A DNA stretch of 64,000 nt from Schmidtea polychroa. Lineage: Eukaryota. Every line of letters starts with the position of its first letter. Within the stretch, counting starts at the first letter, position 1. Shown here piece after piece: positions 11,115 to 64,000 of the stretch. The stretch is from positions 106,432,397 through 106,496,396 of the forward strand of contig CM097887.1 in assembly GCA_044892525.1 (NCBI GenBank), given 5' to 3'. The position numbers and the translations under genes were made by a program. Below the pieces are notes generated by a model that was not told the DNA's origin, did no database searches, and saw only the letters and a program-made list of their open reading frames with translations.

Positions 11115-11187
11115 TCAGTCACCATTTTTGTTATTCATTTTATATACATTTCGAAACAAGTGTTTGTTACGTCATAATAAACTAAAA

Positions 11188-12638
<1,451 letters not shown>

Positions 12639-12991: not shown

Positions 12992-14568
12992 CACCAACCG
13001 GCAATTGATTATCATCAAATGGCCATTCATTTGCATATTTAATAATATAAATATTAACTTACCTATAATAAATGTGTGTGTGTCATAGCCAGAAGGGACA
13101 TTCAATTAGCTAGGTGACATTGAATTAGCTCTTACACTATAGAAAGATAGAAAAAATTGCTGTTGGAAGAAAAATAAATAAATACATACAAACACGGTTC
13201 ACAAATTTTCTATAATATAAAATACACACTATAGGACATTGATTTATCATAAGGACATTCAATAAGCTAAAAATTTTCATTTTTAAATCAAATTATTATC
13301 AAAATGTTCGAAGATATTTCAGAAGCTTCTTCAGAATCAACAATTCCATTTCAAGAAATTCATAGAAATGTGTAAGTTTTTCATTAAACTTTAATTATTT
13401 TTTAAAAATCGATATAGAATTACCATTAAAGATAAAGAAAGAATCATTAAATCCATGGAAGATGGCCATGATTATTATGAATTAGGCCGTATTCTTGGAA
13501 TTAAGCGGAATACAATAACCAGCATTATTTTGAAATATAAGAAGACTGGAATTTTATCCGCAGGAACAAGAGGAGGCAATCAACCAACAATTATCACAAC
13601 AATTATTGGCCAGGAATTATTGAACTATGTCGAAAGAAATTATTATTCGACATTAAATCAAATGAGATTGTTTTTATCTACAAATCACAATGTAGAAATT
13701 TCCACAAAATCAATATCCAGGTACCTGAAAAATCAATTATTAACCTTCAAAAGGATCAGGCCTTGTGTGGAAGAAAGAAATTCAGATAGAATATTGGATA
13801 TTCGGCAGACATATGTTACACGTCTGCTTGAAGAAGGTTGGAGGAGCAGTAAATCTATTTATATAGATGAATGCTCTTTCAATACATGGACAAACAAGAG
13901 ATTCGGAAGATCTCGAGTAGGCACTCGAATTTACAGCAATGTGCCAACAAATCGAGGTCCCAATATTTCATTAGTTTTGGCAATATCCAAAAATGGGCCA
14001 ATCCATTCACAAATCATCATTGGCTCTTTTAGAAAGGAATCATACCAGTCATTTATAACAGAATTGACTGAGAAACTGAATGGCTCTGGATTCATTTTGA
14101 TACACGATAATGCATCCATCCACAATAATGTATTATCTTTGAACAATCACATAGAAAAGTTGCCTCCATATAGTCCATTTTTGAACCCCATCGAAAGTGT
14201 GTTCAGCAAGATTAAAAATGGGGTAAGGACTAAAGTTTCCTCGACTAATGGATTTTCCAGGATGAGTTTCAATGACAGATTTATCGCAATATCCCAAGCA
14301 GTTATCGAGGAACTTAGCAAACCAGATTATAGTAATTTGAAAAATTACTATAATCATATTAAAAGGTTCTTCCCTAAATGCTTGAAGAAGCAGGATATTT
14401 TAGGTGAATTCTAAAAAATGTAATGTATATTATAATAAATAATTAAATATCTTACTTCTTTATTCATTAGTTTTAAAAAAATCTTAAAATTAACTAAAAT
14501 CCAGAACAAAGCTTATTTGACAAAGCTAAATGAATGTCTCATTTATGATAATTAAATGCGCTTTGGTG
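12992..14568 (+). mobile_element. Apparently autonomous Tc1/IS630-like transposon, 1577 bp
   Basis: TA TSD; imperfect ~45-bp TIRs CACCAACCGGCAATTGATTATCAT.. and CACCAAAGCGCATTTAATTATCAT..; contains an intact transposase. Confidence 0.9.
13304..14414 (+). CDS. Tc1/IS630-family transposase (DD28E), 354 aa spliced; exons 13304-13371 and 13418-14414
   Basis: 46-nt GTAAG..AG intron gives in-frame MFEDISEASSES..HRNV|ITIKDKERIIKSMEDG; motifs YIDECSF, LIHDNASIH, LPPYSPFLNPIESVFSKIK. Confidence 0.9.
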
Positions 14569-26300: not shown

Positions 26301-26742
26301 TTTTTTAATTATGTCCAGCAAACACTTGACATCCAATCGAAACAAATTAAATTATCTGAGTTTAGACTGACTAGTAGTATCCATGTTGATTATGTGTTGA
26401 CTGTAGTGTGTGTGTTAGTATTGTTCAGAAGAAATTGTCTTTGTGAGTGCTTGTGTGAAGGTGCTACCGTGAATTAACCTCTCTATACATGCACGCGTTA
26501 GCTTGGACTTGTGAATATAGCATGTCAAAAATGGTCTTTCTGCAAGCGTGTGACTGCTTGCAGGATGAATTTACAATGGCACATGTGCGAGCATTTTTAC
26601 TGGGATAGTACTAATACATACAAACAAAAGTTGGGACCTGTAAACCCTTTTAAACAGCAGTCTTTTGCAGGGATATTTCATTTTCTAGCATAAGCACAAC
26701 TTTTTAGGCATGTTTGGAGAAAAAAAAAATTTTCGACCCACC

Positions 26743-34489: not shown

Positions 34490-36240
34490 ATTGTTAAAGT
34501 GCTAGTTTCGATTTGCAGTTATTTCTAGACGGAACAGTTGCGATATACTTTTGACGAATCGTATAGTGACCGTAAGCATAGCTTTCATTACAATTGAACC
34601 AATACCTTTTATCATCCAAACATTGTAGAGCTCGTTTTTCTGTCATGAAAGTATACAACTGGTGATTGACACTTCCTGTTTTTTTTTGTTCGATGCTCAC
34701 TATTCCACCATCAGTATAGACTTATTATAGGCTTCATGGGTGATATTAGAATTTGTAAGACTTATTCCTTTGGCTTTTAGTGTTTTTATCGCCTTGCAGT
34801 GAGTAGCACTTGGGACGAAGAAACACCCATTCTTTATATTGATTTCCTTTATTCTCATCCTTGAATTTCCCGATTACAGAACAAATTTTATCTGAGAACA
34901 ATGGATCAGCCACTGGATAATTTGAAGTATCTAGGAACCCATCTTCAATCATTTTTGGATATAGTTGTAAGCGTAAATCAACATTTTTACACTCTAAAAA
35001 GAAGGAATCTGTGTCACCGGCTACTATATTAATTTGACAATTGAATTCTTCTCTATAACTATGTAGTTCTTTATATTGAAACCGGTACATGCGAAGTTTA
35101 GATAAATCAAGTACGGTTTGTCCAATATACTTTGGTCTATCTAAACACACAATTTCCTTATTGAGTATAACAGCAATGAGATCATCCGCAATCTTGATGC
35201 TACGACGAAACATAGGATGACTACAATAAGTTATCAATCTTTTGCTCTTGCTGCATAATCTCAAATTTATACTTTCTTCAAGTTTTCCACAGTTTTACCG
35301 TATAACCTGTTGTTCTTTAACTTATAATAATCTCACTGAAATGAATCTGTACTAGCTACTCTTATTTGGGTATTATAATCAATATATCCCCTGAAAATAG
35401 CTACTGAAAATAGCTCTGAAAGCTTCAAAAACATCAGCCAACAGAAAAACATCCAACTTGAGATATACTAGCATGTAACCTAGCAGTATCTCATAGTTGT
35501 ATTGTTGCCAGATTCGATTTGCATGTATGTAATTTTCTTGACTAACTCCCTCCCAAATTGGTAGTAATTCGGTTATTGACAGTAAAACATCCATTGATGT
35601 AGTCATATCAAAAGGAAAAATGGTTTTACAAGTCATCATCTGTGATTCAAAAACATCTGTCAGTGGAAGACATGGCAAGTTTTATGATAAATTTGCCAAG
35701 CTGCTATTTAAAAATTGTAAAGAATCAATGAATCTAATTCTTCCGCCTTTTGATGTCGCTGTAAGTGTGAGAAACTTTTCTGTTGATTGAGGAATAACAT
35801 TTAAATTCCAATCTGGGAATTTTCCAATTGTATATTTTAATATATGATGAATGTCATATCCACGAAGATTATAAAATACAACAGGTAAAGACGGATTGAT
35901 TCTTCTAGACAAATTACAATCTTGACATGCTGCTCCGAGATATTGACCAGCAAAATGATGATGATCTCGACATTTTTTAATTTCACCATCTTTGATAAAC
36001 TCTGCACAAAGTCCAAATTGTATTTTTACTGTCCCCATTCGTTGAATATGATCTTCTATTTCTTTGATGAGACAATCTGGAACAATAATGCCAGGAGAAT
36101 TAATTGCAGATACATCGCTGGTCAATTCAACACGTGAACCATTTAAGTGAGACTCCCGACGTGGACACAATTGTATGTTAGAGTCTCCATTTCCTTAAAA
36201 TATTGACTTTCATTTTGTGGTGCCAGAGTTTTATCTAACT
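34490..36240 (-). pseudogene. Polinton/Maverick protein-primed DNA polymerase B remnant
   Basis: CRDHHHFAGQYLGAACQDCNL, VVFYNLRGYDIH, RFIDSLQFLNSSL, YLKLDVFLLADVFEAFR, IGQTVLDLSKLRMY, AGDTDSFF, GKFKDE, FLRPKCYS, DDKRY; fragmented, with palm segments missing. Confidence 0.9.
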
Positions 36241-39880: not shown

Positions 39881-42800
39881 TAGGGTTGTTAAACGAAAAT
39901 CGGAAATCCGATTTTCGATTTTGAAAACGATTATCGGTTTCTTTATTTCACAAAACGATAATCGGTTTTGTTTGTCTTTTACATATTATACAGATAAATT
40001 GAATGCCGGGAATTTAATTTTGTTCATTGTTTACTACTGTATCCATTCAATTTTACCGACAGAAAGGGGCAGTTTTTTTCAACTCGTCAAAACTCCTTAC
40101 AACGTGTTTGTACATGAGTCAATCTTTTCAATTATCCCATTCCTGTAACAACGGCAAGAGGTTGCTCTAGTATTCCAACATATCTCACCGACTGACCAGT
40201 TATTTGTCAGTTGATGTCCGTAATCGGCAACCGCTGATTTGTTTTATACAGCCCCTGACAGGTACTGTGCCCATTAAATCTTTTAATCGGGACCAGCTGA
40301 GGCCAAGGTTGTGGTTGTGTGTTTTAGTATTTGCAGTTTGCCGGTTTTGTTTGGCAACCTGATATTTGTTGCCGAAATCGGCCACCAAAGATTTGATTAC
40401 TGCAGTCCATAACAGAAGCTTAGCTATTAACCCCCTTGACAGGGACTAGATGTGGCCGAGGTCGGCGATTTTGTGTTTAGTCCGCGAAGGTCTATTTTGC
40501 AATCTGATATCTTGCATCTGCGAACCGGTTAAAAGTTTATTCTGGTTTAACTTAAAACCAGAATAAACTGAATTGCATACCGCATCATCTTCATGAAAGC
40601 CAGATGTAAAGAGATCGAAAGACATGTGCTATTCCTCGAATCATAATGTTTGGTTGTTTACCCATTGAAATATGGAAGAGAGTTGGACACTAGGACAAAC
40701 TTCAAGTTTGGGTGACGACCATTCTCAAATTTATTCAGTTTGTTGATCTTTTGACAATGTCTAAGAGGCTGCTCAGGTCGAAGTAAATTGATTTTCGGGA
40801 TTTTAATTTATGACAAGATTTTGGAAAGTCCAATCCATGGTTCAAATCTACTATAAACATATAAACTGTTATATAATTTCCATTCATTCAGTTAGTTGCT
40901 CTTGTAGTAGCTGTTATTAATCCATATAATTGAAAATTGCGGTTTAGTTTAAATATTACGTAATATTCAATAAACATTTTTTATATTATCTAAATCAATA
41001 CAAAATCAGTTTAAATTTATGGGTTTCCGTATAAATAAGTCTGACGTCTGGGACAATTTTGATAAAATTTCGGCGACGATGGCACAATGTAAGCTCTGTG
41101 CACAGCAAATAAGTAGGAGTGGAGGTACTACGGCTGGTTTGCATGCACATTTGCGTAGCAAACATGGTGGATTAACAACATCTTCAAATACTCAAACACG
41201 ATTGACTGCATTGATTACAACACAAAGAAATTGTCCGAGTAGTAAACAGGAAAAAATTACGGCTGCTGTTGCGAGATTGATTTCCGAAAATATGTTGGCA
41301 ATTTCGCTCGTGGAATCGAAATCCTTCCGTGAATTGATGGCGATAGTGGAGCCAGGATATCGTCCTCCGTGTCGTCAGACGATGACAGCACGACTAACAG
41401 CAATGAAAAATAATTTAGTGGTCAAAATGTCGAAATATATCCATGAAAATGTCAAGGACATTGCGATCACTACCGACATCTGGACTAGTGTCACCAATGA
41501 AGCTTATCTCAGTTTTACTGCAAGCTACATTGATACAGACTGGAATATGATGACGCCTGTTCTTGGAACAATTCTGATGACTCAACGCCACACACAAGCC
41601 GTCATTGCTGACCATCTATGTAGTATAGCTGATGAATGGTCAATAAAAGAAAAAATTGTTGCATGTGTCCATGATGGTGCATCCAACATCAATCATGCAG
41701 GCAATCTCAATGGATGGTTTGACGTTCACTGTGCGGCGCATAAATTGCAACTTTGCATCAATAATGCAATGGGCTCCCATGTTGTCACGGATCATCAAAT
41801 TTCCAAATGTATATCAGCTGCAGCACGACTAGTCGGACATTTCTCACATAGCCCAATGGCAACGGGGGAGCTCCTGAAAAGACAGTTGTCCATGGACAAG
41901 GATAAAACGCCACTAAAACTTATTCAGCACTGTAAGACTCGTTGGAACAGCGTCTATGACATGTTTGAACGACTAGTAGAACTGAGATGGCCAGTAGTTG
42001 CAGTATTGAGCGACAAAAACGTGGTGAAATTGAACGATGCCAAAACGTTGGGCATGAAGGACGATTATTGGCAACTGATGACTGAATTGCTCCCTGTTTT
42101 AAAAGCGTTGCAGATCGTGACGTCCGTCATGTCAGCCGAAAGCCAGCCATCAGCCTCTTGTGTTTTTTCCATGTTATGGGGACTCGTGAAAAATCATTTA
42201 ACCATTAAAGAAGAAGATTCTGACATTATGGGTGAATTTAAGAGAGATCTTGCTAAGAATATTTCACGTCGTTTTGGATTAGAAAATAATGAAACAGCAA
42301 AAAACGAATGCGTTGTTGCATCAATTCTCGATCCGATGTATAAGCATCTTCCTGGATTTCCGGACGATTTCAAAAAGCTGGCGTATGAAAATGTCCGTCA
42401 TCTCACCAGACAGCTGCCAGATTGCCCCGAACAGCCGAAGACGAGTCGGGATGAAGATAACATGATCCCACCAACTAAAAGATCACGACCAAATCATGAT
42501 GCAGTTATGTTTCTCCTTGGTGATAGTGCAGCACAACAGGCGCCAGAGGAATCCGACTTTGAATATTACGTCAAATCATCATGGTCGACAAACTCAAGTG
42601 AAACAGCCTTGGAGTGGTGGAAACATAATATGAAACTTTTCCCCAAAACAGCTATTCTTGCCCGGAAGTTCTTATGCATTCCTGCAACCTCAGTGCAATC
42701 GGAACGATTATTTTCGGCCACTGGACGTCTGATAACCAAGCTTCGTAACCGGCTCCTTCCAGATCATGCAGAATCTTTGGTCTTTTTGAATATGAACCAG

Positions 42801-43219
42801 GACTTGTCTGATATTTAAAAATAAAATCGAATTTAGTACTTACTTTTAAATGTTTACACTTTGGAATCTTTGTTTTTGATATCTATGGTTTCGATATGTT
42901 TATGTTTAATTTTAAAATAAGGCCGCCGCAGCACCGGAAAGTTTTATTTTGATTTATACTTTAGTATATACAGGGAAAATTACCGAAGAAATTGAAAACA
43001 AATTTACTTATATGCTTTAACTTTTTACATAAACAGTCAGTTCATATTCTCCTTGTGTGTGGTATAAACTTTGAATAAAACTAATTATACTATACACGTG
43101 CGTGAATAGTAATAATGTAAGTAGCTTTGGTTATGCAAAGTGCAAACGATAATCGGTTTAAAATCGGATTTATACAAACGATAATCGGATTGCTCGAAAA
43201 ACCGATATTAACAACCCTA
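39881..43219 (+). mobile_element. Full-length Ac-type hAT transposon, 3339 bp
   Basis: TIR TAGGGTTGTTAA / TTAACAACCCTA; perfect 8-bp TSD TTATTAAT; subterminal CGATAATCGG repeats. Confidence 0.95.
41019..42818 (+). CDS. hAT (Ac/ZBED1-like) transposase with BED finger, 599 aa, intact
   Basis: WDNF..CKLC..HAHLRSKH, TTDIWTS, HDGASN, CAAHKLQL, TRWNS, IPATSVQSERLFS. Confidence 0.95.
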   Translation: MGFRINKSDVWDNFDKISATMAQCKLCAQQISRSGGTTAGLHAHLRSKHGGLTTSSNTQTRLTALITTQRNCPSSKQEKITAAVARLISENMLAISLVESKSFRELMAIVEPGYRPPCRQTMTARLTAMKNNLVVKMSKYIHENVKDIAITTDIWTSVTNEAYLSFTASYIDTDWNMMTPVLGTILMTQRHTQAVIADHLCSIADEWSIKEKIVACVHDGASNINHAGNLNGWFDVHCAAHKLQLCINNAMGSHVVTDHQISKCISAAARLVGHFSHSPMATGELLKRQLSMDKDKTPLKLIQHCKTRWNSVYDMFERLVELRWPVVAVLSDKNVVKLNDAKTLGMKDDYWQLMTELLPVLKALQIVTSVMSAESQPSASCVFSMLWGLVKNHLTIKEEDSDIMGEFKRDLAKNISRRFGLENNETAKNECVVASILDPMYKHLPGFPDDFKKLAYENVRHLTRQLPDCPEQPKTSRDEDNMIPPTKRSRPNHDAVMFLLGDSAAQQAPEESDFEYYVKSSWSTNSSETALEWWKHNMKLFPKTAILARKFLCIPATSVQSERLFSATGRLITKLRNRLLPDHAESLVFLNMNQDLSDI

Positions 43220-46361: not shown

Positions 46362-46680
46362 TTAATCGCCATAGAAAGCAAGATGAGTTTCTGCTATGGA
46401 ATATTGGCACATAGTACAACATTTTAGTTCTTTGATACATTCCTCGCAATGACTAAGGTATCCGCATGGCAAGATTAATATGCGTATGGGGCGAAGTCTG
46501 CATATGCAACAGGTTCGTAAGATGGACACTTTCTCTTTTATTTTTAGTTCGATCGTTTCGGCTAGTATGTCTAACTGCTCTCGTATTCGGTGATAATCTA
46601 GGTTTAATTCTGGGTGATATCACTGATATAGGGTTTTGTTGCTTACATTACAATCTTTATGGCCTAATCCTAATAGATAA
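46362..46680 (-). pseudogene. C-terminal IAP/RNF34-type RING finger remnant; absent from the ORF track
   Basis: ..EQLDILAETIELKIKEKVSILRTCCICRLRPIRILILPCGYLSHCEECIKELKCCTMCQYSIAETHLAFYGD*; one upstream TGA; the expected His in PCGH is Tyr. Confidence 0.75.
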
Positions 46681-46687
46681 TATGAAT

Positions 46688-48070
46688 ATCTATACCTCAT
46701 TCAAAAGGTATTGCAACGGGCTTCAAAATGAGCCATCGGTCAATAAATTCCATTGGTGGTAACTCTGTAAATTTAAATTTTAAATATGACCTTGAAAAAA
46801 TAAATATGACCTTGAAAAAATAATATTTTGAAAAATAGTAATTTGACCTTGAAAAATAATATTTTGAAAAAATAATAATATCTTTTCCAATAATGATGGT
46901 AATATGGATTTCTATACTTTATTCGAAAGGTATTGTAGTGGGCTTCAAAAAATGTTATCGATCAATAAATTGCGTTGGCGGGAAGTCTGACAAAATTGTC
47001 TTTGTCCCAGTGGGCTCATGTTTTTAAAGAAAAATAATATAACCATGAAAAATAATATTTTGAAAAAATAATAATATCTTTACCAATAATAATGATAATA
47101 TGAATATCTATACCTCATTCGAAAGGTATTGCAATGGGCTTCAAAATGAGCCATCGTTCAATAAATTCCATTGGTGGGAACTCTGTAAATTTAAATTTTA
47201 AATGACCTTGAAAAAATAAATGACCTTGAAAAAATAAATATGACCTTGAAAAAATAATATTTTGAAAAAATAATATTATCTTTACCAATAATATTGATAC
47301 TATGGATATCTATACCTCATTCGAAAGGTATTGCAATGAGCTTTAAAATAAGTCATCGATCAATAAATTCCATTGGTGGGAACTCTGTAAATTTAAATTT
47401 TAAATATGACCTTGAAAAAATAAATGACCTTGAAAAAATAAATATGACCTTGAAAAAATAATATTTTGAAAAAATAATATTATCTTTACCAATAATATTG
47501 ATACTATGGATATCTATACCTCATTCGAAAGGTATTGCAATGAGCTTTAAAATAAGTCATCGATCAATAAATTCCATTGGCGGGAACGCTCAAAATTTAA
47601 ATTTTAAAATATGACCTTGAAAAAATAATATTTTGAAAAAATAGTAATATGACCTTGAAAAATAATATTTTGAAAAAATAATAATATCTTTTCCAATTAT
47701 GATGGTAATATGGATTTCTATTCTTCATTCGAAAGGTATTGTAGTGGGTTTCAAAAAATATTATCGATCAATAAATTCCGTTGGCGGAAACTCTGACAAA
47801 ATTGTATTTGTCCCGGCGGGCCCATGTTTTTTAAAAGAATAATGTAACCTTGAAAATAAATGACCTTAAAAATTAATGACCTTGAAAATATAAACGACCT
47901 TGAAAAAATAGTAATATGACCTTGAAAAAATAATATTTTGAAAAAATAATAATATCTTTACAAATAATATTGATAATATAGATATCTATACCTCATTCAA
48001 AAGGTATTGCAATGAGCTTCAAGATAAGCCATCGTTGAAGAATTTCCGTTGGCGGGAAGTCTGACAAATT
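46688..48070. repeat. Satellite-like tandem array, about 7 units of ~200-270 bp with internal ATGACCTTGAAAAAATAA subrepeats
   Basis: Recurring TCTATACCTCATTCGAAAGGTATTG...ATAAATTCC.TTGG.GGGAA; reverse-complement fragments at ~58960-59340 and ~61840-62220. Confidence 0.9.
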
Positions 48071-48109
48071 TATAGTCTTAGCGGGCTCATATCTGGGAAT
48101 ATATATAAT

Positions 48110-48530
48110 CCAGACTAAGCACCCAAAAATCATGTTGGGTTGCCGACTACGTCGACACTCCTTTATCATCGACTAGGCAACAAAATAGATTTCGTCGACC
48201 GCTAGCCAGACACCCCATGATCGTTCTTACGTCATGACACCCATGATCTGCATCATGTTGGTGATGTGCCATGACGGCGGAGCGTAGTGAAGCAGGTGAG
48301 TCCCTACTACTGACTACTCGTTCACCACGTTTCGACTTCTCTATTTCCTGACAGCCGATAGAAGGTCTTACATCGCATGCGCTGAAATTCAGCAAAATGT
48401 GATGTGCCATGACGGCGGAGCGTAGTGAAGCAGGTGAGCCCCTACTACTGACTACTCGTTCACCACGTTTCGACTTCTCTATTTCCTGACAGCCTGACAG
48501 CATGCGCTGAAATTCAGCAAAATCTAACTC
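48110..48530 (-). mobile_element. LTR-like segment with an internal ~95-bp duplication
   Basis: Homologous to 5680-5870; GTGATGTGCCATGACGG..CTGACAGCC occurs at ~48260 and ~48400. Confidence 0.55.
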
Positions 48531-48796
48531 CCTTGCATTGATTTACTCGACTTAAAATAATCATTTATCAAAAGCGAATAACACGGATAATGAAACAAAT
48601 TTATAATTAGGCACACAATATTTGAAGACAGCGTCAGTGATATTTACACCTAAACATAGGCCTAAGACAACGTACAGTTTCATGACATGAAATCCACAGA
48701 CTAGACATTTGTGGTCGTGAGTGGGTGCGACTGTTCAAAAAGTAGATGGAGACGCGCCGGCAAAAATTTTGTGTAAAATTAAAAAAATGAAAATAT

Positions 48797-49734
48797 ATAT
48801 CGTGTCTAAATTTTTGATCACACAACCTTAATTCACAGTCTAATGTTCCGATAACATTGATAGGTTGTCCGTTTGCTCCCGATGCAACAGTTAATGTCGG
48901 CACTATTGCTTGTAATTCTTTTTCATTTAATAAATTTGCTTCGATCAATGTCAAATCTGATCCTGAATCAATAATGGCATGTACCGTATGCCTGTTAACT
49001 TTTAATTTGATCGTAGGTTTATGAGTCTTTTTACCCATATTGACCATTAATATTGTTGAGATTCCTCTAATGTTATCTCTGAACTTTTGTTGATCATCAC
49101 TATCTTTGTCATTTTCCGATTTTATTTCATCTTTATACTCCTCCTTTAGCCGTTCCAGCGTGCTAAATGGATATTTCGGTACCATCTCCAATACTGATGT
49201 ACCCAAGGGTGGCATTGTCTCGAAATTCATCTGATACGTTGGGTATGAGGTAGATGGTAGTATATCTGTATTTGTTCTAAACTCGAACCTCTTTAGCATT
49301 TCTTCTTCAACTCGTTCTGGTATTATCTTTTTTCTACCCTCGTATGGTGACAAATAATTCACAGGCCATTCCTGCCGTTTCCTCCTTTTTGCTTTAACAG
49401 GGTACTGTTGTAAAGTACTATTTTCAAAATTTTGAAATTTCGGCTTTTTGTTGTCTGGTTTTATTGAGGTGTTGTCTGAGGTCTCATAGGCCTCTAGGTT
49501 ACCTCTCTCGTCAGAATTGTCATCGTCTCGATGACTAGGTTCATACATTATTAACTGATGTTTCTTTATAGTTTGTCTCTTCATTATCTTAATCTCTTTA
49601 TTATGATGATGAAATACTGCAAAATCTGCACAAACTGGACACATTCCTAGTAGCAACTTCCACGACCATCCCCCGATCTTGAAGATACTATAGGTGGAAA
49701 ATAATTGCGATATGATTATTTTCAATATCATCAC
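48797..49734 (-). pseudogene. Truncated gag-tail/aspartic protease ORF (inverted copy)
   Basis: AIIDSGSDLTLI; identical to 54735-55672, then joined to noncoding sequence. Confidence 0.85.
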
Positions 49735-50886
49735 AATTGCATATATACCTGAACATCCGGCTACAAAAATACCAAAGCTTGTAAATCTACCCCAGATTTT
49801 TCGTATTACATTTTACTATTAAAAAATTAAAATTTAAAATAGTATAATTTATAAATCCACAGACTAGACATTTGTGGTCGTGAGTGGGCGCGACTGTTCA
49901 CAAAGTAGATGGAGACGTGCCGGCAAAAATTTTGTGTAAAATTAAAAAAATGAAAATAAAAGAAGCATTTATTTAAAGTTTTTTGCAAGAATTTAAGCTT
50001 ATTCGAATGAATAATCTTTTATAAAATCTAGGCATTAATCTGTAAATCATATCGAGAAATCAGAAAAAATAGTTTATTAAAAAATGAATAATATAATTAA
50101 GCCATTTTATTTTTCAAAATCTCTAAAACTCCTTCTGCATTTATTCTGTTTTTATCATCGTAATCAAATATTGCTGACAACAACTCTGCAAAAAAGCAAT
50201 TTTTAATAATTTCTGATAACTTATTTTCTCCTTCTGGATCGTTTTTTAAAGAATTTGTTGATTTATCTATTAGGGGAACTCCGATTAATTTGAAAATAGC
50301 TTTAATGGAATCTTCTTTAAATAACGGCTCTTGGAGAATCATAAACGCAATAACGCATCCCGCACTCCATACATCAATGGCTGTCCCGTAACTCTTATTT
50401 GCGCAAAGCAATTCTGGAGCCCTATAAAATCTGATTTAATTTAATAAACTATTATAAATAACAAAATATTCATACTTGGTGCCGATTGAAGTTATATTCA
50501 AACAATCAGGCTTCATTTGGCGCATATGGAAAAAGTTTGAAATCTTTAATCTTAATTCTGCCATATCAACGAAAATGTCTTTTGGATTGATATTGCAGTG
50601 GGCGATATTCAAATTATGCAAGTATTGCAGTCCGGACATCAATTGTCCGGATAATATTTTCATGTGATTGTCTTCTAATTTCAGGTCTTTCAACTTGAAT
50701 CTTTCAATCATACTCAATAAATTTTCAGGCATATATTCAAATAGGATGAGCATCACTTTTGGCGATGGAACCGCATATTTCATCGAAATTAGATTTGGAT
50801 TACAAAGTAATCCCAGGGATTTCAGTTTGTTAAATTCAGTTGATTTAACAATCATTACATTCATATTAGTTGGAAGTAATCCTATT
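48797..50886 (-). repeat. Left arm of a 2090-bp near-perfect inverted repeat (partner 53583-55672)
   Basis: Identical kinase and gag-protease ORF translations on opposite strands; breakpoints located by eye. Confidence 0.95.
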
Positions 50887-51074
50887 AGTGAACTCGTCGT
50901 CCTATTTTCTTTGATTTGACAGTTGGTAAAGTTAATATTGAAATTCCCAATGTTTATCAGAACCTCTTTCATAGTAGGTAATAATAATAAAGCCTTTTTT
51001 GTTTTAAAGTGGTCTGGTTCGTATTGACTAAAACAGTAGCTTTGAACAGATTTGGTATCCATATCACCTGTCAT
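50097..51074 (-). CDS. GSK3/CMGC-like pseudokinase, 310 aa spliced; exons 51074-50476 and 50430-50097
   Basis: 45-nt GT-AG intron joins SIGTK|FYRAPELL; LFEYMPENL, QLMSGLQYLH, IDVWSAGCV; HRD replaced by HCN and DFG by NFF. Confidence 0.8.
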
Positions 51075-52765
51075 TTTATAGGTTTACAAATGTTATTAAA
51101 AGACATTTTTTATTTTTAAACGAATTTTTTGAAAATTTTTTGAAATTTGTTTTTTAAAAAAATTTTTAACTGAAATTTTTTAAATCAAAAAAAATTATAA
51201 ATTTCAATTTAGAAAATGGATTTGTAATTTAATCTCCAATATTAGTGACAATTGTAATTTGAAATAATTTTACAATTTGATAATTGATATTTAATTATAT
51301 CAATTTCTATTTTAAATTTTGTAAAATTCAATTTATACTATCATTTTTTTTTGAAATTTAATGAGGTAAAAAATGGATTTTTTTATTTTTTATTGGTTTA
51401 AAAATAAGTTCATTAAAATTTAAAATAGTATAATTTATTTGAATATTAAAATATCGGAACCAATAAATATATTGCCAGTAAAATATTTTATCTTTTTCAT
51501 CATTGATTTATTACTAAAGGAAGATTTATATCCTTATCAATTTTATTTATTATTTTTGTAGATCATTGGTCAATATTTTTTTATTTAAAATAAGCATTTG
51601 TGCTGAAAACTTGTGTTAAAATATTATTGGTCCATAATCTGATTGATATTAAATATTTATTTGTACCTACCTAAATTTTATATTTATTTATTCGTTATAG
51701 ATGTTAGAGTCGAAGCATAAATTTAGACAATATATATATTCTCTAAAATACATAAATATCATTCTAGTATGCCATGTTGCGATACTGAATATTTTAGCTA
51801 GATATATTATGAGTCACCTTTTGAGGGACGGTTTTTTAGGATATATAGATTATATAATTCCCGCCGAAGTACGCGGAGCGTATCAAAAGATAAAGAATGG
51901 ATGTAAAATGTTCCAAATGATCCGATTCGAATTGTGCATCCTGGTCAGTCATCATGGAGGTTGGAATTCCATAACGTGAGAACCAGGTGGATACTAAAGC
52001 TTATGCGACCGTCTGAGCGGTAATGTCAGGGATAAGAACGGCCTCAAACCAGCGTGTTTTCCGATCAATCGTATATTCAAGTTAAAAAATGTAATTCATA
52101 ATTCATAATTTTTCCTAAAAAAGACCCCTTAAACCGTATATTGACCCAATATCATGCTAATAGTCTTAATCTAAATCATCAATAAACGCATAATCAAATC
52201 AAAAATAGAATTTGTAAATTTTATAACTGACCCCCTCAAAATCATATAGTCATCAACTATTACTTAAATATACTAAACTAGACTATCTTAATACATATTT
52301 AACTTGTAAATATAAAATTTATAAATTTTCTAATTTACCCCCCTATTAATCATATAGCCACCGACTATTAGACCAATCAAAATCGAGTGGTCATATTTTA
52401 TTAAATCTAATTTAAATTAATTGTTTATTGTTCATTTTGTCTTTCTATTTTAGTTTTTCATGTTACTATTTTTAATTTTTTAAATATTTTATTAAATTGG
52501 TAACTTTGTGCTATTTTCTACTTTTATCTATATTCTGCTATTTCCTCATTCTTTTAATTCCATTTCAATCCTATGTTTTATTCTCCTTACTTATCTCGTT
52601 GTTGCCTTTATTTTATATTTATTTTTAAATTATTTTTGATTTTTAAAGCACTTTTGTTGTTACTTATTGTTATTCTCTTTTCATTTACTTACGCTATTTT
52701 ATTTTTTTTGTTTTAACCTTACTTCTAAGCCCAACAAGAGTATTAACATGTAATTTCAACTGTTT

Positions 52766-53582: not shown

Positions 53583-54372
53583 AATAGGATTACTTCCAAC
53601 AAATATGAATGTAATGATTGTTAAATCAACTGAATTTAACAAACTGAAATCCCTGGGATTACTTTGTAATCCAAATCTAATTTCGATGAAATATGCGGTT
53701 CCATCGCCAAAAGTGATGCTCATCCTATTTGAATATATGCCTGAAAATTTATTGAGTATGATTGAAAGATTCAAGTTGAAAGACCTGAAATTAGAAGACA
53801 ATCACATGAAAATATTATCCGGACAATTGATGTCCGGACTGCAATACTTGCATAATTTGAATATCGCCCACTGCAATATCAATCCAAAAGACATTTTCGT
53901 TGATATGGCAGAATTAAGATTAAAGATTTCAAACTTTTTCCATATGCGCCAAATGAAGCCTGATTGTTTGAATATAACTTCAATCGGCACCAAGTATGAA
54001 TATTTTGTTATTTATAATAGTTTATTAAATTAAATCAGATTTTATAGGGCTCCAGAATTGCTTTGCGCAAACAAGAGTTACGGGACAGCCATTGATGTAT
54101 GGAGTGCGGGATGCGTTATTGCGTTTATGATTCTCCAAGAGCCGTTATTTAAAGAAGATTCCATTAAAGCTATTTTCAAATTAATCGGAGTTCCCCTAAT
54201 AGATAAATCAACAAATTCTTTAAAAAACGATCCAGAAGGAGAAAATAAGTTATCAGAAATTATTAAAAATTGCTTTTTTGCAGAGTTGTTGTCAGCAATA
54301 TTTGATTACGATGATAAAAACAGAATAAATGCAGAAGGAGTTTTAGAGATTTTGAAAAATAAAATGGCTTAA
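53583..54372 (+). pseudogene. 5'-truncated second copy of the pseudokinase (intron 53994-54038)
   Basis: Matches the minus copy from IGLLPTNM onward; the first ~63 codons are missing. Confidence 0.85.
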
Positions 54373-54734
54373 TTATATTATTCATTTTTTAATAAACTAT
54401 TTTTTCTGATTTCTCGATATGATTTACAGATTAATGCCTAGATTTTATAAAAGATTATTCATTCGAATAAGCTTAAATTCTTGCAAAAAACTTTAAATAA
54501 ATGCTTCTTTTATTTTCATTTTTTTAATTTTACACAAAATTTTTGCCGGCACGTCTCCATCTACTTTGTGAACAGTCGCGCCCACTCACGACCACAAATG
54601 TCTAGTCTATGGATTTATAAATTATACTATTTTAAATTTTAATTTTTTAATAGTAAAATGTAATACGAAAAATCTGGGGTAGATTTACAAGCTTTGGTAT
54701 TTTTGTAGCCGGATGTTCAGGTATATATGCAATT

Positions 54735-56965
54735 GTGATGATATTGAAAATAATCATATCGCAATTATTTTCCACCTATAGTATCTTCAAGATCGGGGGA
54801 TGGTCGTGGAAGTTGCTACTAGGAATGTGTCCAGTTTGTGCAGATTTTGCAGTATTTCATCATCATAATAAAGAGATTAAGATAATGAAGAGACAAACTA
54901 TAAAGAAACATCAGTTAATAATGTATGAACCTAGTCATCGAGACGATGACAATTCTGACGAGAGAGGTAACCTAGAGGCCTATGAGACCTCAGACAACAC
55001 CTCAATAAAACCAGACAACAAAAAGCCGAAATTTCAAAATTTTGAAAATAGTACTTTACAACAGTACCCTGTTAAAGCAAAAAGGAGGAAACGGCAGGAA
55101 TGGCCTGTGAATTATTTGTCACCATACGAGGGTAGAAAAAAGATAATACCAGAACGAGTTGAAGAAGAAATGCTAAAGAGGTTCGAGTTTAGAACAAATA
55201 CAGATATACTACCATCTACCTCATACCCAACGTATCAGATGAATTTCGAGACAATGCCACCCTTGGGTACATCAGTATTGGAGATGGTACCGAAATATCC
55301 ATTTAGCACGCTGGAACGGCTAAAGGAGGAGTATAAAGATGAAATAAAATCGGAAAATGACAAAGATAGTGATGATCAACAAAAGTTCAGAGATAACATT
55401 AGAGGAATCTCAACAATATTAATGGTCAATATGGGTAAAAAGACTCATAAACCTACGATCAAATTAAAAGTTAACAGGCATACGGTACATGCCATTATTG
55501 ATTCAGGATCAGATTTGACATTGATCGAAGCAAATTTATTAAATGAAAAAGAATTACAAGCAATAGTGCCGACATTAACTGTTGCATCGGGAGCAAACGG
55601 ACAACCTATCAATGTTATCGGAACATTAGACTGTGAATTAAGGTTGTGTGATCAAAAATTTAGACACGATATCAAGGTCACTAGACAATGTATGGCAGAA
55701 TGTATCGTGGGAATGGATAAATTGAAAAAGTTAAAAGATATTGTATTCGATTGTGCAACAGGTGAACTAGTGAAAATGACGGGTAGAAAGCGGAAAACCT
55801 ACAGTGTGGATGTAGTGTTTTTGGATAGAACGGTGACAATACCACCGAGGACCGAAACAGTTTGTTTTGTGGCAACACACCAAGAGGTGTAAGGAGATGT
55901 TATTTTCGAACCGAGTGAGCAGACTTTTTCCAGACTTTAAAAGACAATTCATGGTGATGACCGATGCATGCACAAGAGGTATAGGTGCGGTTTTGGGACA
56001 GAAAGACGAAATTGGCGATGAATACGCAGTAGCTTATGCAAGTCGTGGATTGAAGCCACACGAAAAAAGTTATGCTGTAATAGAATTGGAAGCATTAGGA
56101 TTAGTATTTGCAGTGGAAAAATTTAGTCATTACCTATGGGGCCGAAAGGTAATTTTCTATACAGATCATAGACCATTGCAATGGCTGTTAAAACATAGAG
56201 ACGAAGCATCAAAGTTAGTATGATGGGCATTGAGATTACAGCCATATAATATCGAAATTGTATATCGTAAAGGTAAAGCTAATGGTAATACAGATGCATT
56301 ATCATGAATGGAGCAAGAGCCCGAATTAGAAGATATAAAGGAATTAGAAGGGACAATCTTCATGCTAACAAGAGAGGCTAACACTTTGAGCGATTTAGTA
56401 GAAGCACAGAAAAATGATGATGAAATCAATAAGATCAGACAAGCTATAGAAGCAAAGGCCATATCAAATGAACTTCAGAAATATTGGAGAAACATAAAGA
56501 TAAATTCATATTGGAAGAAGGTCGAATTAAATACGTGGAATCAAGAGATAATGTAATATTAGTGCCCAAGAAATACAGAGAATCACTATTATTACAATAC
56601 CACGATGGAGCACTGGGAGGATATCTCTCAGCTAGCATACACTGTCAAGATTAAAAATGAAATAATTCTGGCCAGATATAAAAGATGATGTTAAAAAGTG
56701 GTGTCAATCATGTAAGATATGTATAACCAGAAGGAACACAGGCAGGAAACCACATGTCCCATTAAAACCAATGTCAGTACCGTCCTCGCCAATGGAGATG
56801 ACTGCTATGGACGTACTAAGGCCCTTTAAAGAATCAAAGATGGGAAATAAATTTATCATAGTATTTTGCGACTACTTAACGAAGTGGCCCGAAGCATTCC
56901 CAATTCCGAATCATAAGGCAGACACAATTGCCAGAATCTTTGTAGAACAAATTGTATTTAGATAT
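54735..56965 (+). mobile_element. Ty3/Gypsy pol derivative lacking RT: protease, RNase H, partial integrase
   Basis: IIDSGSD (protease); at ~55915 jumps to PDFKRQFMVMTDAC..AYASRGLKPHEKSY..YTDHRPL (RNase H); YHDG..FWPDIKDDVKKWCQSCKIC, AMDVLRP, FCDYLTKWPEAFP (integrase N-half); stops present. Confidence 0.9.
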
Positions 56966-57332
56966 GCTTACCGACAGAGAAAGGCTAGATTAGTGAGTAT
57001 TCCTGGTTGTAAAGGAATAAAGGCTTTGGATTGGTTTAGTATCAGAAAGGTAGCGAGTGTAAACCAGCCCCGCATAAATAAATTAATTAATAATTGTAGA
57101 GTTCAAAATACGTTAAACGGGACAACGAGAGATAAAACCTCAACTTGGTTATTCTTAATCATGATAGGGGGAGTAATTTGCATGATTTTAATTTTGATAT
57201 TAACCACCCTATGGATGCTTAGATTAAATATGCGGGATATTCGTTATTGGGAAATTATTTACGAAACCGAGGTATAGGGGGAAAGTCTCACCATATACTA
57301 GGAAGTGTAAATATATATTTTATCTATTTTAT

Positions 57333-59011
57333 ATGTTATTTATATTAGTATGTAAACTAATGTGGGCTCAAATGAGCATCGGTAAAATCAGACATCAGCG
57401 TATGTCGACTTTGGTTACCCTGCGAGGGTCTATCACGAAAGTGATAAAAGCTGTTAATTATTTTATTTTTAGAAAAATGAATTATAACAGAGAACCAAAA
57501 CCACCAGTCAAAGCAAATCGACGACACCCATTGGCAACGTACAATTCCCAGACTCGAGTTGAAACTGAAGTATATAGTACATACAAAGAAGAGTACGTAT
57601 ACAGGTTCATCGGAACTACGGTCGCAGCAAAAATGAATCACCTCACCTCAAACTATTGGTATTATCCCAGGAGAGTGGATATTCCAAACGATTTCAAATT
57701 CGCAGGAGGGCCTCGAAAGCAAATGATGATAACGGTTATAAATAACCAAGGTAGATTAAAATTGGCGGAACTATGTAGAGATTATGGTTCATGTCCGAAA
57801 TTGGAAAACATTTGGATCCATGCGATCAATAGGCCATTCACTGTGTTTATGGCGGGATTAGAGTTACCTGTTGAATTAGAAAAACAGTGTACCCTGGAGA
57901 TATACCACGCTGATGGACGAGAACGGAATATTATGATCCAGGCAGCAGCAGTTGATACCATAATCGCAGTAGAAATCTTGGATTTCAGGAAGCCATACTC
58001 TATAGTTAGCAAAAACGAGCCAACTTGGATTTACAATGTAAATAAAGTTGATATACAGCAGTGTAAATCATTTGTGAGGAAGAAGTTAACCAAAGCCGAG
58101 GAGGACGAGGCTACAATTTTCATATCGGCAGGTTTTGCCAAATCCCGAATCGAACTGAAGGAGACAATTATCCAAATCGCAATTATGGATATGAGGGGAA
58201 ATAATTTATTGAGTGCGGTAGTGACTCCCAGAGACCCTGTAAAACACTACCAAACGCACCAATACAAGTTAAAGGAACCTGATATTAGAGGAAACCTCGA
58301 CGAAGATGATTGTTATCCTCTGATAAGATCTGCGATAAGAAAATACTTGTAGGTATTTTGCTTAAAGATCTGATCTCGGTAGCCAATCTACCAGTGCAGC
58401 GGATACTGAGTATTCGTGACCTTTCTGCAAATAAACTATTGGAAACCAGAGGAGTCCCAATGATTCATGGTCATTACAGATTGGGATTCCCGACGAAAAC
58501 TTTCCTGCGTACGGTTCCCGGAGAACCAAGGAATTTAGTGGTCACCAATGAGGCACTGGCGATACGTGCGGTTTATTTACATCTCAGAAACGAATGGTTA
58601 GACCATATCACGAAACCCCAGGAGGAATTCATTTCCGTAACTACAGCAGCGATAGTTGAGCAGGAAATGACGCAAAAGAAGAGATTACCCGAGCAACCAT
58701 CTACATCAGGGCAACCCAAGCCTAAGAGAAAATCACCTGTGGACTTACCACCGCCTCCAGCTATATCTATTGGAGAAGAAGATGAATATGAAACATGCGT
58801 TAGCGAAACGGAGACAGCAAAATCACCCAAACAATCATCGGGAGCTGCCTATCAGCCAAAGGATAAATCGGAAAATGCGGTCAGAAAAGAAAATCCAGAA
58901 GGAGGCAAGGTGAAAAAGATGTTAAAGAAAATATTACCCATAAAAAGACAATTTTTTCAAATTTGTCAGACTTCCCGCCAACGGAAATTCTTCAACGATG
59001 TCTTATTTTAA
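57333..59011 (+). pseudogene. Accessory ORF with a DEDDh (REX4/ISG20-like) exonuclease-fold region, split by a 1-nt frameshift near 58340; copy 1
   Basis: QIAIMDMRGNNLLSAVVTPRDPVKHYQT..IRSAI / KILVGILLKDL..IRDLS..EALAIRAVY; acidic catalytic motifs not found. Confidence 0.6.
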
Positions 59012-59690
59012 AGCTCATTGCAATACCTTTCGAATGTGGTATAGAAATCCATATTATCAATATTATTGGTAAAGATATTATTTTTTCAAAATATTATTTT
59101 TTCAAGGTCATTTATATTTTCAAGGTCATTTATATTTTCAAGGTCATTCATATTTTCAAGGTCATATTTTAAAATTTAAATTTTTAGAGTTCCCACCAAT
59201 GGAATTTATTGGCCGATGGCTAATTTTGAAGCCCACTGCAATACCTTTCGAATGACGTATAGATATTCATATTATCATTATTATTAATAAAGATATTATT
59301 TTTTCAAAATATTATTTTTCAAGGTCGTTTATTTTTTCAAGGTTCAAAATCTGTTCAAAGCTACTGTTTTAGTCAATACGAACCAGATGAAATAATCGGT
59401 TCCATCGCCAAAAGTGATGCTCATCCTATTTGAATATATGCCTGAAAGATTGAAAGATTCAAGTTGAAAGACCTGAAATTAGAAGACAATCACAAGAAAA
59501 TATTATCCGGACAATTGATGTCCGGACTGCAATACTTGCATAATTTGAATATCGCCCACTGCAATATCAATCCAAAAGACATTTTCGATGATATGGCAGA
59601 ATTAAGATTAAAGATTTCAAACTTTGGAGGACGAATAATAAAATTGCGCTTATCGTCATATTAGAAAATGACCAGCGAGTCGAGAGATTA

Positions 59691-60158
59691 GTGCTCAACC
59701 ATGCTTATCTAAGTAGAAGATGGACAATCAAACCAGATACCGTGACAAAGGCGAACATTTCGTATTTGGAATTTACGGAGAGAACCGGTTGGTATACAAT
59801 ATATCAAGAAATAGTAAATCTAATACCTCCCACAAAAGGAGAACTAACTGGCAAAGAAGGAAAGGCTAGATTAGTGAGTATTCCTGGTTGTAAAGGAATA
59901 AAGGCTTTGGATTGGTTTAGTATCAGAAAGGTAGCGAGTGTAAACCAGCCCCGCATAAATAAATTAATTAATAATTGTAGAGTTCAAAATACGTTAAACG
60001 GGACAACGAGAGATAAAACCTCAACTTGGTTATTCTTAATCATGATAGGGGGAGTAATTTGCATGATTTTAATTTTGATATTAACCACCCTATGGATGCT
60101 TAGATTAAATATGCGGGATATTCGTTATTGGGAAATTATTTACGAAACCGAGGTATAG
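59691..60158 (+). CDS. TM-anchored protein fragment (155 aa); further copies at 62572-63039 and, partially, 56980-57277
   Basis: C-terminal hydrophobic helix WLFLIMIGGVICMILILILTTLWML with a short tail; NIS and NGT sequons. Confidence 0.5.
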   Translation: MLNHAYLSRRWTIKPDTVTKANISYLEFTERTGWYTIYQEIVNLIPPTKGELTGKEGKARLVSIPGCKGIKALDWFSIRKVASVNQPRINKLINNCRVQNTLNGTTRDKTSTWLFLIMIGGVICMILILILTTLWMLRLNMRDIRYWEIIYETEV

Positions 60159-60213
60159 GGGGAAAGTCTCACCATATACTAGGAAGTGTAAATATATATT
60201 TTATCTATTTTAT

Positions 60214-61892
60214 ATGTTATTTATATTAGTATGTAAACTAATGTGGGCTCAAATGAGCATCGGTAAAATCAGACATCAGCGTATGTCGACTTTGGTTACC
60301 CTGCGAGGGTCTATCACGAAAGTGATAAAAGCTGTTAATTATTTTATTTTTAGAAAAATGAATTATAACAGAGAACCAAAACCACCAGTCAAAGCAAATC
60401 GACGACACCCATTGGCAACGTACAATTCCCAGACTCGAGTTGAAACTGAAGTATATAGTACATACAAAGAAGAGTACGTATACAGGTTCATCGGAACTAC
60501 GGTCGCAGCAAAAATGAATCACCTCACCTCAAACTATTGGTATTATCCCAGGAGAGTGGATATTCCAAACGATTTCAAATTCGCAGGAGGGCCTCGAAAG
60601 CAAATGATGATAACGGTTATAAATAACCAAGGTAGATTAAAATTGGCGGAACTATGTAGAGATTATGGTTCATGTCCGAAATTGGAAAACATTTGGATCC
60701 ATGCGATCAATAGGCCATTCACTGTGTTTATGGCGGGATTAGAGTTACCTGTTGAATTAGAAAAACAGTGTACCCTGGAGATATACCACGCTGATGGACG
60801 AGAACGGAATATTATGATCCAGGCAGCAGCAGTTGATACCATAATCGCAGTAGAAATCTTGGATTTCAGGAAGCCATACTCTATAGTTAGCAAAAACGAG
60901 CCAACTTGGATTTACAATGTAAATAAAGTTGATATACAGCAGTGTAAATCATTTGTGAGGAAGAAGTTAACCAAAGCCGAGGAGGACGAGGCTACAATTT
61001 TCATATCGGCAGGTTTTGCCAAATCCCGAATCGAACTGAAGGAGACAATTATCCAAATCGCAATTATGGATATGAGGGGAAATAATTTATTGAGTGCGGT
61101 AGTGACTCCCAGAGACCCTGTAAAACACTACCAAACGCACCAATACAAGTTAAAGGAACCTGATATTAGAGGAAACCTCGACGAAGATGATTGTTATCCT
61201 CTGATAAGATCTGCGATAAGAAAATACTTGTAGGTATTTTGCTTAAAGATCTGATCTCGGTAGCCAATCTACCAGTGCAGCGGATACTGAGTATTCGTGA
61301 CCTTTCTGCAAATAAACTATTGGAAACCAGAGGAGTCCCAATGATTCATGGTCATTACAGATTGGGATTCCCGACGAAAACTTTCCTGCGTACGGTTCCC
61401 GGAGAACCAAGGAATTTAGTGGTCACCAATGAGGCACTGGCGATACGTGCGGTTTATTTACATCTCAGAAACGAATGGTTAGACCATATCACGAAACCCC
61501 AGGAGGAATTCATTTCCGTAACTACAGCAGCGATAGTTGAGCAGGAAATGACGCAAAAGAAGAGATTACCCGAGCAACCATCTACATCAGGGCAACCCAA
61601 GCCTAAGAGAAAATCACCTGTGGACTTACCACCGCCTCCAGCTATATCTATTGGAGAAGAAGATGAATATGAAACATGCGTTAGCGAAACGGAGACAGCA
61701 AAATCACCCAAACAATCATCGGGAGCTGCCTATCAGCCAAAGGATAAATCGGAAAATGCGGTCAGAAAAGAAAATCCAGAAGGAGGCAAGGTGAAAAAGA
61801 TGTTAAAGAAAATATTACCCATAAAAAGACAATTTTTTCAAATTTGTCAGACTTCCCGCCAACGGAAATTCTTCAACGATGTCTTATTTTAA
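60214..61892 (+). pseudogene. Exonuclease-fold accessory ORF, copy 2 (same frameshift); copy 3 starts ~63095 and runs off the window
   Basis: Identical translation to copy 1. Confidence 0.6.
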
Positions 61893-64000
61893 AGCTCATT
61901 GCAATACCTTTCGAATGTGGTATAGAAATCCATATTATCAATATTATTGGTAAAGATATTATTTTTTCAAAATATTATTTTTTCAAGGTCATTTATATTT
62001 TCAAGGTCATTTATATTTTTAAGGTCATTCATATTTTCAAGGTCATATTTTAAAATTTAAATTTTTAGAGTTCCCACCAATGGAATTTATTGGCCGATGG
62101 CTAATTTTGAAGCCCACTGCAATACCTTTCGAATGACGTATAGATATTCATATTATCATTATTATTAATAAAGATATTATTTTTTCAAAATATTATTTTT
62201 CAAGGTCGTTTATTTTTTCAAGGTTCAAAATCTGTTCAAAGCTACTGTTTTAGTCAATACGAACCAGATGAAATAATCGGTTCCATCGCCAAAAGTGATG
62301 CTCATCCTATTTGAATATATGCCTGAAAGATTGAAAGATTCAAGTTGAAAGACCTGAAATTAGAAGACAATCACAAGAAAATATTATCCGGACAATTGAT
62401 GTCCGGACTGCAATACTTGCATAATTTGAATATCGCCCACTGCAATATCAATCCAAAAGACATTTTCGATGATATGGCAGAATTAAGATTAAAGATTTCA
62501 AACTTTGGAGGACGAATAATAAAATTGCGCTTATCGTCATATTAGAAAATGACCAGCGAGTCGAGAGATTAGTGCTCAACCATGCTTATCTAAGTAGAAG
62601 ATGGACAATCAAACCAGATACCGTGACAAAGGCGAACATTTCGTATTTGGAATTTACGGAGAGAACCGGTTGGTATACAATATATCAAGAAATAGTAAAT
62701 CTAATACCTCCCACAAAAGGAGAACTAACTGGCAAAGAAGGAAAGGCTAGATTAGTGAGTATTCCTGGTTGTAAAGGAATAAAGGCTTTGGATTGGTTTA
62801 GTATCAGAAAGGTAGCGAGTGTAAACCAGCCCCGCATAAATAAATTAATTAATAATTGTAGAGTTCAAAATACGTTAAACGGGACAACGAGAGATAAAAC
62901 CTCAACTTGGTTATTCTTAATCATGATAGGGGGAGTAATTTGCATGATTTTAATTTTGATATTAACCACCCTATGGATGCTTAGATTAAATATGCGGGAT
63001 ATTCGTTATTGGGAAATTATTTACGAAACCGAGGTATAGGGGGAAAGTCTCACCATATACTAGGAAGTGTAAATATATATTTTATCTATTTTATATGTTA
63101 TTTATATTAGTATGTAAACTAATGTGGGCTCAAATGAGCATCGGTAAAATCAGACATCAGCGTATGTCGACTTTGGTTACCCTGCGAGGGTCTATCACGA
63201 AAGTGATAAAAGCTGTTAATTATTTTATTTTTAGAAAAATGAATTATAACAGAGAACCAAAACCACCAGTCAAAGCAAATCGACGACACCCATTGGCAAC
63301 GTACAATTCCCAGACTCGAGTTGAAACTGAAGTATATAGTACATACAAAGAAGAGTACGTATACAGGTTCATCGGAACTACGGTCGCAGCAAAAATGAAT
63401 CACCTCACCTCAAACTATTGGTATTATCCCAGGAGAGTGGATATTCCAAACGATTTCAAATTCGCAGGAGGGCCTCGAAAGCAAATGATGATAACGGTTA
63501 TAAATAACCAAGGTAGATTAAAATTGGCGGAACTATGTAGAGATTATGGTTCATGTCCGAAATTGGAAAACATTTGGATCCATGCGATCAATAGGCCATT
63601 CACTGTGTTTATGGCGGGATTAGAGTTACCTGTTGAATTAGAAAAACAGTGTACCCTGGAGATATACCACGCTGATGGACGAGAACGGAATATTATGATC
63701 CAGGCAGCAGCAGTTGATACCATAATCGCAGTAGAAATCTTGGATTTCAGGAAGCCATACTCTATAGTTAGCAAAAACGAGCCAACTTGGATTTACAATG
63801 TAAATAAAGTTGATATACAGCAGTGTAAATCATTTGTGAGGAAGAAGTTAACCAAAGCCGAGGAGGACGAGGCTACAATTTTCATATCGGCAGGTTTTGC
63901 CAAATCCCGAATCGAACTGAAGGAGACAATTATCCAAATCGCAATTATGGATATGAGGGGAAATAATTTATTGAGTGCGGTAGTGACTCCCAGAGACCCT

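Follow-up and report, generated by a model that had tools for sequence, protein, structure and literature searches.

We analysed a window of 64,000 nucleotides from Schmidtea polychroa (contig CM097887.1), and all positions below are those of the window. A two-exon kinase-like gene lies on the minus strand at 50097-51074, and its spliced frame is open over 310 codons (310 aa) from the ATG at 51074 to the stop at 50097. Exon 1 (50476-51074, minus strand; delimited by frame, Pfam and alignment) encodes the N-lobe up to the activation segment, and exon 2 (50097-50430, minus strand; frame and Pfam) encodes YRAPELL, DVWSAGC, the rest of the C-lobe and the stop. The exons are separated by a GT-AG intron of 45 nt in phase 2 (50431-50475, minus strand), which brings in an in-frame TAA if it is kept. 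The codon it interrupts is also the one interrupted in host GSK3 paralogs with two exons. The initial annotation had proposed a 45-nt sense-strand intron here, and the GT donor at 50475, together with the open 310-aa frame obtained on removal, bears this out. Such a length is ordinary in this genome, since the alpha-tubulin introns in the window are 45 and 50 nt long. That alpha-tubulin gene (11187-12638), with high coverage and both introns skipped in RNA contigs, served as a control.

Each exon separately matched the Pfam Pkinase family (E 9e-13 and 3e-13), with scores that exceed its curated cut-off. The motifs YRAPELL, AIDVWSAGCV and QEPLF were found in the gene product, confirming the GSK3/CMGC-like C-lobe read previously. 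The alignment also confirmed that Asn replaces both the catalytic Asp and the DFG Asp: HRD reads HCN, DFG reads NFF, and the catalytic loop as a whole is HCNINPKD vs HRDIKPQN in GSK3s. The Gly-rich loop had been described as missing; strictly it is not absent, and a degenerate form, IGNFNIN, aligns to IGxGxFG. According to the available part of PMC13519141, a pseudokinase is defined by the loss of one or more of the VAIK Lys, HRD Asp and DFG Asp. The window protein falls within this definition with two of the three residues lost, the placement of its beta-3 Lys being of low confidence. It resembles the sequence-defined pseudokinases of that source in these losses and in its predicted kinase fold, and it could belong to any of the nucleotide-binding classes 1-4.

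The structure model of the read-through protein (mean pLDDT 79) is confident from beta-3 onward, where the kinase fold is retained, and mostly of low confidence over residues 1-65. The top Foldseek matches were GSK3-beta and CDK2, about equal at TM about 0.63, and in a sequence search of solved structures CDK2 scored about as well as GSK3. The proposal of a GSK3-like pseudokinase is supported by the motifs, the lost catalytic residues and trees that place the protein on the GSK3 side. We predict that the protein is non-catalytic and carries out no phosphotransfer. According to the alignment, the HRD Arg is Cys, the activation-loop SYI reads TSI, and deletions surround helix G. In GSK3 the HRD Arg belongs to the primed-phosphate pocket, the activation-loop Tyr is a further mark of the family, and the region around helix G binds Axin. 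A role as an Axin-binding Wnt decoy or a substrate decoy appears unlikely, because the helix-G region is partly deleted and the HRD Arg and activation-loop Tyr are gone. Should the protein have a function, it would most plausibly be that of a C-lobe scaffold under weak constraint, used in a few cells. If functional, the gene would represent a GSK3-derived pseudokinase in a regeneration model. Our literature searches, which reached few subscription papers and main texts rather than supplementary gene tables, where the gene could be listed, returned no description of a GSK3 pseudokinase from planarians.

The DNA around YRAPE was compared in 19 kinase loci of the genome. Counting back from the Y of YRAPE, the second codon is split by a phase-2 intron in the window gene and in two host genes, L049/L088 and L042/L090, which are the only 2 of the 16 kinase loci other than the window gene and its two close relatives to have an intron at this codon and phase. 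Its length is 910 nt in L049/L088 and 80 nt in L042/L090, and both genes have HRD and DFG intact. Six CDK-type genes have instead a phase-0 intron 11 nt upstream of the site. The site is without an intron in three multi-exon host GSK3 genes, whose introns lie after DFG and before DVWS. The window gene, with the phase-2 intron and without the canonical GSK3 introns, has the structure that marks the two-exon clade. The comparison of intron position with host GSK3 genes thus gave the same codon and phase in two host two-exon paralogs, and intron retention needs no special mechanism because the intron is common to them.

The clade appears to extend beyond this genome. Over exon 1, L088 and S. mediterranea GSK3 Q1WBW1 are 97% identical, and 10 of the 11 best database matches to this exon end at SYISSR (5) or at most 12 residues beyond (5). 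Two of these ten truncated proteins are named, from the parasitic flatworms Trichobilharzia and Protopolystoma. Judging from these truncated protein frames, the intron is probably old in flatworms. It would mark a GSK3 paralog clade to which both planarians and parasitic flatworms contribute, and from which at least two fast-evolving lines have branched off in this genome. L090:4453-5585 (minus strand) is itself a fast-evolving, single-copy, two-exon GSK3-like kinase with HRD and DFG intact, and it had no database match at E below 1e-20.

The kinase phylogeny placed the window protein on the GSK3 side vs CDK/MAPK with SH-aLRT of 94 and 95, in quick trees and on a very long branch. A clade of the window protein and the two two-exon genes was not rejected (p-AU 0.39), and this grouping was not recovered in a GSK3-only tree. 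At one catalytic-loop position the window protein has P, as canonical GSK3 does, and the two-exon clade has S. The 12 residues common to the window protein and L090 only, the most among 15 rows, were discounted, L090 being the most divergent row. The window gene resembles the two-exon GSK3 paralog (Q1WBW1/ABD72512.1) and L090 in being split into two exons by an intron of identical codon position and phase, in the GSK3-length activation segment and beta7-beta8 loop, and in YRAPELL and DVWSAG. It differs from them in its low identity (about 24-30% over exon 1), in the helix-G deletions and in the loss of HRD, DFG, the catalytic-loop Lys, the Gly loop and the C-terminal tail. We suggest that the window gene descends from the flatworm two-exon GSK3 clade.

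An exon-2 search of the genome, with all 104 candidates scored, detected four identical copies on C3 and two other close relatives, L005 and L035, both on C1. L005 is a decayed paralog, about 9% diverged, that has the same intron and both flanks, so that the shared stretch corresponds to window 49928-51454. Comparison with L005 delimits an upstream flank of 380 nt (51075-51454, minus strand) and a downstream flank (49928-50096, minus strand). No LTR-family match was found in the 40 kb around L005. Its coding region has 9 indels (7 frameshifting) and 1 stop vs no disabling change in the window gene. HCN is common to the window gene and L005, suggesting that catalysis was lost before the two split. 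L035 is truncated at its 5' end; its exon 1 runs precisely into exon 2 without the intron, and it answers the search for intronless copies. At its joint 14 of 15 nt match the end of L005 exon 1, vs no such match in 79,761 background positions. A deletion at AG microhomology was considered as the origin of this joint and rejected, as the expected extra G is absent; no poly(A) tail is visible at L035. Since L035 is an intronless processed fragment, on at least one past occasion the intron was probably spliced out and the resulting mRNA copied by reverse transcription into DNA that was inherited.

The DNA next to the gene belongs to an LTR-element family. Downstream, at 48797-49813 (minus strand), lies a fragment with the end of env (a Monjiviricetes-type fusion protein) and protease, without an LTR, as detected by Pfam and family comparison. 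At 54656-56976 (plus strand) Pfam and junction comparison identified debris in which the env end and protease are followed by RNase H and the first part of integrase, with RT deleted. The gene had been described as lying in the same orientation as retroelement pol; the orientation is indeed the same, and the adjoining piece is env end and protease with RT deleted, not pol proper. The env-protease stretch has at least 40 matches at 94-100% identity among 117 candidates. Homology of every non-local copy starts at 54656-54657, and all ten family copies that were opened continue upstream as env. Two full-length copies are about 15 kb long, with LTR pairs 99.8-99.9% identical, and the family order is zinc knuckle, Monjiviricetes-type fusion protein, protease, RT, RNase H and integrase. 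The family is young (C2 loci L091-L096; window 48797-49813 and 54656-64000). Its second frame is without a Pfam match, and part of this frame may resemble a DEDDh exonuclease.

The available text on the planarian Burro elements (PMC6431247) describes an in-frame env between gag and pol. The neighbouring family resembles Burro/GYPSM1, the giant gypsy-like LTR elements of that source, in its mononegavirus-like env, in frame between the zinc-knuckle gag and protease-RT-RNase H-integrase. It differs in length (about 15 kb vs over 30 kb, as given there) and in the lack of a Pfam match to BIR, MATH, ankyrin or BCL2 in the four frames scanned; at this locus there is LTR-less debris only, and the kinase is no part of the element.

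The junction between gene and element is a patchwork. Downstream of the stop the gene's own flank continues for 170 nt; then come about 75 nt taken from the interior of a repeat, a 27-nt insert, a short filler, env-protease, the second copy of a 106-bp stretch and then the resumed repeat. The repeat piece (49853-49949, minus strand) is internal to an unrelated dispersed repeat that resumes at 48786-48124, as repeat comparison showed. This dispersed family is about 1.5 kb long (window 48124-48786 and 5678-6943; loci L103-L112), with a short frame and a conserved 3' end. By self-comparison the 106-bp stretch 49853-49958 has its second copy at 48690-48795 (minus strand), so that the pair brackets the element fragment. 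Junction comparison identified the insert (49826-49852, minus strand), at the junction with the LTR piece, as an exact 27-nt match to 51412-51438 in the gene's upstream flank, vs 9-14 nt shared with the same flank in seven control comparisons of junction strands. The insert is AT-rich and could belong to a low-copy repeat. The joint is spanned by contigs from two runs, X2 and X4, and is therefore more than an assembly feature. Because the joint holds a copy of the gene's own upstream flank, it points to DNA-level template switching as the probable route. Copied flank DNA at joints fits established repair mechanisms.

One alternative makes the kinase cargo of the LTR element and mobile with it, either captured by template switching at the RNA level or preserved because splicing of the genomic RNA was suppressed. 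The kinase is oriented as env, protease, RNase H and integrase are, microhomologies of 2-8 nt occur at several joints, the array unit described below fuses kinase exon-1 pieces with element DNA, and the available text of PMC6431247 reports Burro elements that carry host-like domains. Yet the window and 18 other loci, array edges included, are devoid of the family LTR, and kinase DNA was detected neither in any of the ten other family copies nor in 30-kb stretches around two of them. Close exon-2 matches are only local or at two element-free sites (104 of 104 candidates), and the older copies are without the element. An unrelated repeat piece and a templated insert separate gene and element. 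The available part of Tan et al. (PMC5131818) presents LTR-mediated retrocopies as mRNA copies flanked by the element. The locus is like them in the fusion of host to LTR-element sequence with short microhomologies; unlike them it has neither two-sided element flanks nor LTRs, and it has kept the intron and the upstream flank. Thus flanking LTRs, loss of the intron and of the 380-nt upstream flank, and dispersed kinase-bearing element copies, which would mark LTR cargo or a retrocopy, were all missing here. We regard the cargo reading as largely refuted and give it hardly any probability. A DNA transposon of the Helitron or Pack-TIR type, having captured the gene with intron and flanks and moved it here, is very improbable as well. 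Three observations fit such an event: L005, which lies on another chromosome, shares gene and flanks as one unit with the window, a hairpin and CTAG occur just downstream, and hAT transposase genes are 4-9 kb away. Against this, the hairpin-CTAG repeat runs about 500 nt past CTAG in all ten other copies, L005 is without hairpin-CTAG, and the upstream 51-nt motif has no second copy in the window as a terminal repeat. A Helitron end downstream of the gene was itself ruled out by the homology that continues past CTAG in these ten copies. Capture by a transposon along any route is improbable. The initial annotation had offered DNA-level capture, suppressed splicing or juxtaposition as reasons for the kept intron, and of these only juxtaposition stands; the other two are contradicted by the missing family LTR and the kinase-free family copies.

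Selection and expression bear on another alternative, in which origin and rearrangement are the same and the gene is now a decaying pseudogene, with its frame open by chance and its RNA stray unspliced read-through. The evidence for selection and expression of the window gene is weak. dN/dS of the window gene vs L005 is 0.45. Nonsynonymous divergence (0.073) is no lower than that of the flanks (0.076-0.089), as decay would predict. With the mutation spectrum kept, the synonymous excess gave p=0.04 vs L005 and was absent vs L035 (p=0.42). Simulated neutral survival of the open frame was 0-4%, a figure biased by the choice of the locus for its open frame. Over the 67 codons that all three copies have in common, only 2 replacement changes fall on the window branch vs 10 and 8 on the others (p=0.04 and p=0.11), which argues against decay. 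None of the runs listed as matching is recorded as RNA, and runs X6-X12 had next to none of the sampled words. Run X1 nevertheless behaves as RNA, with tubulin exons only and the intron skipped, and extends over much of the kinase body (depth 2-4.6). In X1 the array variant has the same depth as the gene, and in runs X2, X4 and X5 the array is 20-33 times deeper; this difference argues for RNA rather than DNA carry-over as the source of X1 coverage of the kinase, contig depth being a poor measure. The one RNA contig across the intron, from X1, keeps it, with its in-frame stop, and could derive from either strand. The suggested check for splicing across 50431-50475 found no spliced joint among the contigs of four runs, in which rare forms are dropped. 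Decay is further favoured by the run contigs, in which 2 of 5 coding differences (array variants excluded) change a residue, and by the other copies found, all of them broken or near-identical local duplicates. On the other side, about 30% GSK3 identity with an open frame needs long past selection, the HCN shared with L005 puts catalytic loss before the split, and the processed fragment L035 records past spliced expression in cells that pass on DNA. We consider present decay possible but rather unlikely.

Searches for an orthologue in other species returned only generic CMGC kinases: one gave 38 matches among 1,207 candidates, and in another none of the best 150 reached E below 1e-30. The control host gene L090 likewise gave nothing among 152 candidates, and these results are thus no evidence of absence.

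Established at this locus are the gene structure, the shared intron site, an element-free intron-bearing paralog and an intronless fragment elsewhere in the genome, an LTR family free of the kinase and a patchwork junction. Most likely this is an ordinary host gene that a DNA rearrangement put beside broken retrotransposon pieces, a lineage-specific host pseudokinase that is possibly decaying. The reading we prefer, and consider probable, is that of a still constrained host gene, a fast-evolving offshoot of the flatworm two-exon GSK3 clade, later joined to LTR fragments by DNA-level template switching. The gene would have descended from the two-exon GSK3 clade and lost its catalytic aspartates before it and L005 diverged; gene, repeat and element pieces would then have been joined by a switch during repair or replication, and inverted duplication, segmental duplication and tandem amplification may have followed. 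The very long branch, and a GSK3-only tree that cannot place the window protein, speak against this preferred reading. A conventional host locus, which the initial annotation had named as what would overturn its proposal, is largely what we found, with an intron common to host GSK3 paralogs. The apparent paradox of a sense intron beside retroelement genes is thereby removed, being explained by inheritance and juxtaposition, and the arrangement matters little as it is. A more elaborate proposal, to which we give little probability, is that selection keeps the pseudokinase as a non-catalytic scaffold whose intact copies occur only within a palindrome and a 70-unit array. An active env-bearing LTR family would share both structures, and dsRNA/piRNA silencing of the element would then also control the gene.

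Duplication has since reshaped the locus. Self-comparison detected an inverted duplicate of 48797-50886 at 53583-55672 (plus strand; 2,090 bp, 99.86% identity), inside which lies a second, 5'-truncated kinase copy (53583-54372, plus strand) without the first 63 codons. From 56979 to 64000 (plus strand; self-comparison) the window holds the start of a 2,881-bp tandem array, whose unit consists of an LTR-family internal piece, satellite and two kinase exon-1 fragments. A 204-bp satellite occupies 46653-48090 (no strand assigned; self-comparison), and a piece of it is present in each array unit. The recurrent kinase fragments placed earlier near 59350-59630 and 62230-62510 were located at 59347-59387 plus 59386-59625 and at 62228-62506, and they are parts of units of the 2.88-kb array. 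At least 70 exon-1 fragment matches lie on C3 (among the best 150 of 228 candidates scored), 12 and 58 in two blocks. The array comprises about 70 near-identical copies of the 2.88-kb chimeric unit, about 200 kb in all, at C3 106.49-106.52 and 107.05-107.23 Mb, and is a macrosatellite born from the rearrangement junction. A block of at least 50 kb (window 13158-64000) is repeated 564 kb away (C3 107.01-107.06 Mb) at 99.7-100% identity, and could be either a real duplication or uncollapsed haplotypes. The available part of PMC11410931 reports LTR elements as enriched at planarian rearrangement breakpoints and discusses them as possible repair templates. The locus may serve as a case, resolved in detail, in which a planarian rearrangement used DNA of an LTR element as its template, the route suggested there.

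Other mobile DNA is also present in the window. A double-jelly-roll-like frame of 436 aa lies at 1062-2372; this region and 34746-36194 include broken pieces, one of them weakly matching type-B DNA polymerase, and both regions may be debris of Polinton type. We additionally detected an hAT transposase (40974-42818, 614 aa), a DDE transposase (13395-14414, 339 aa) and, at 24021-26351, a 776-aa protein without a Pfam match.
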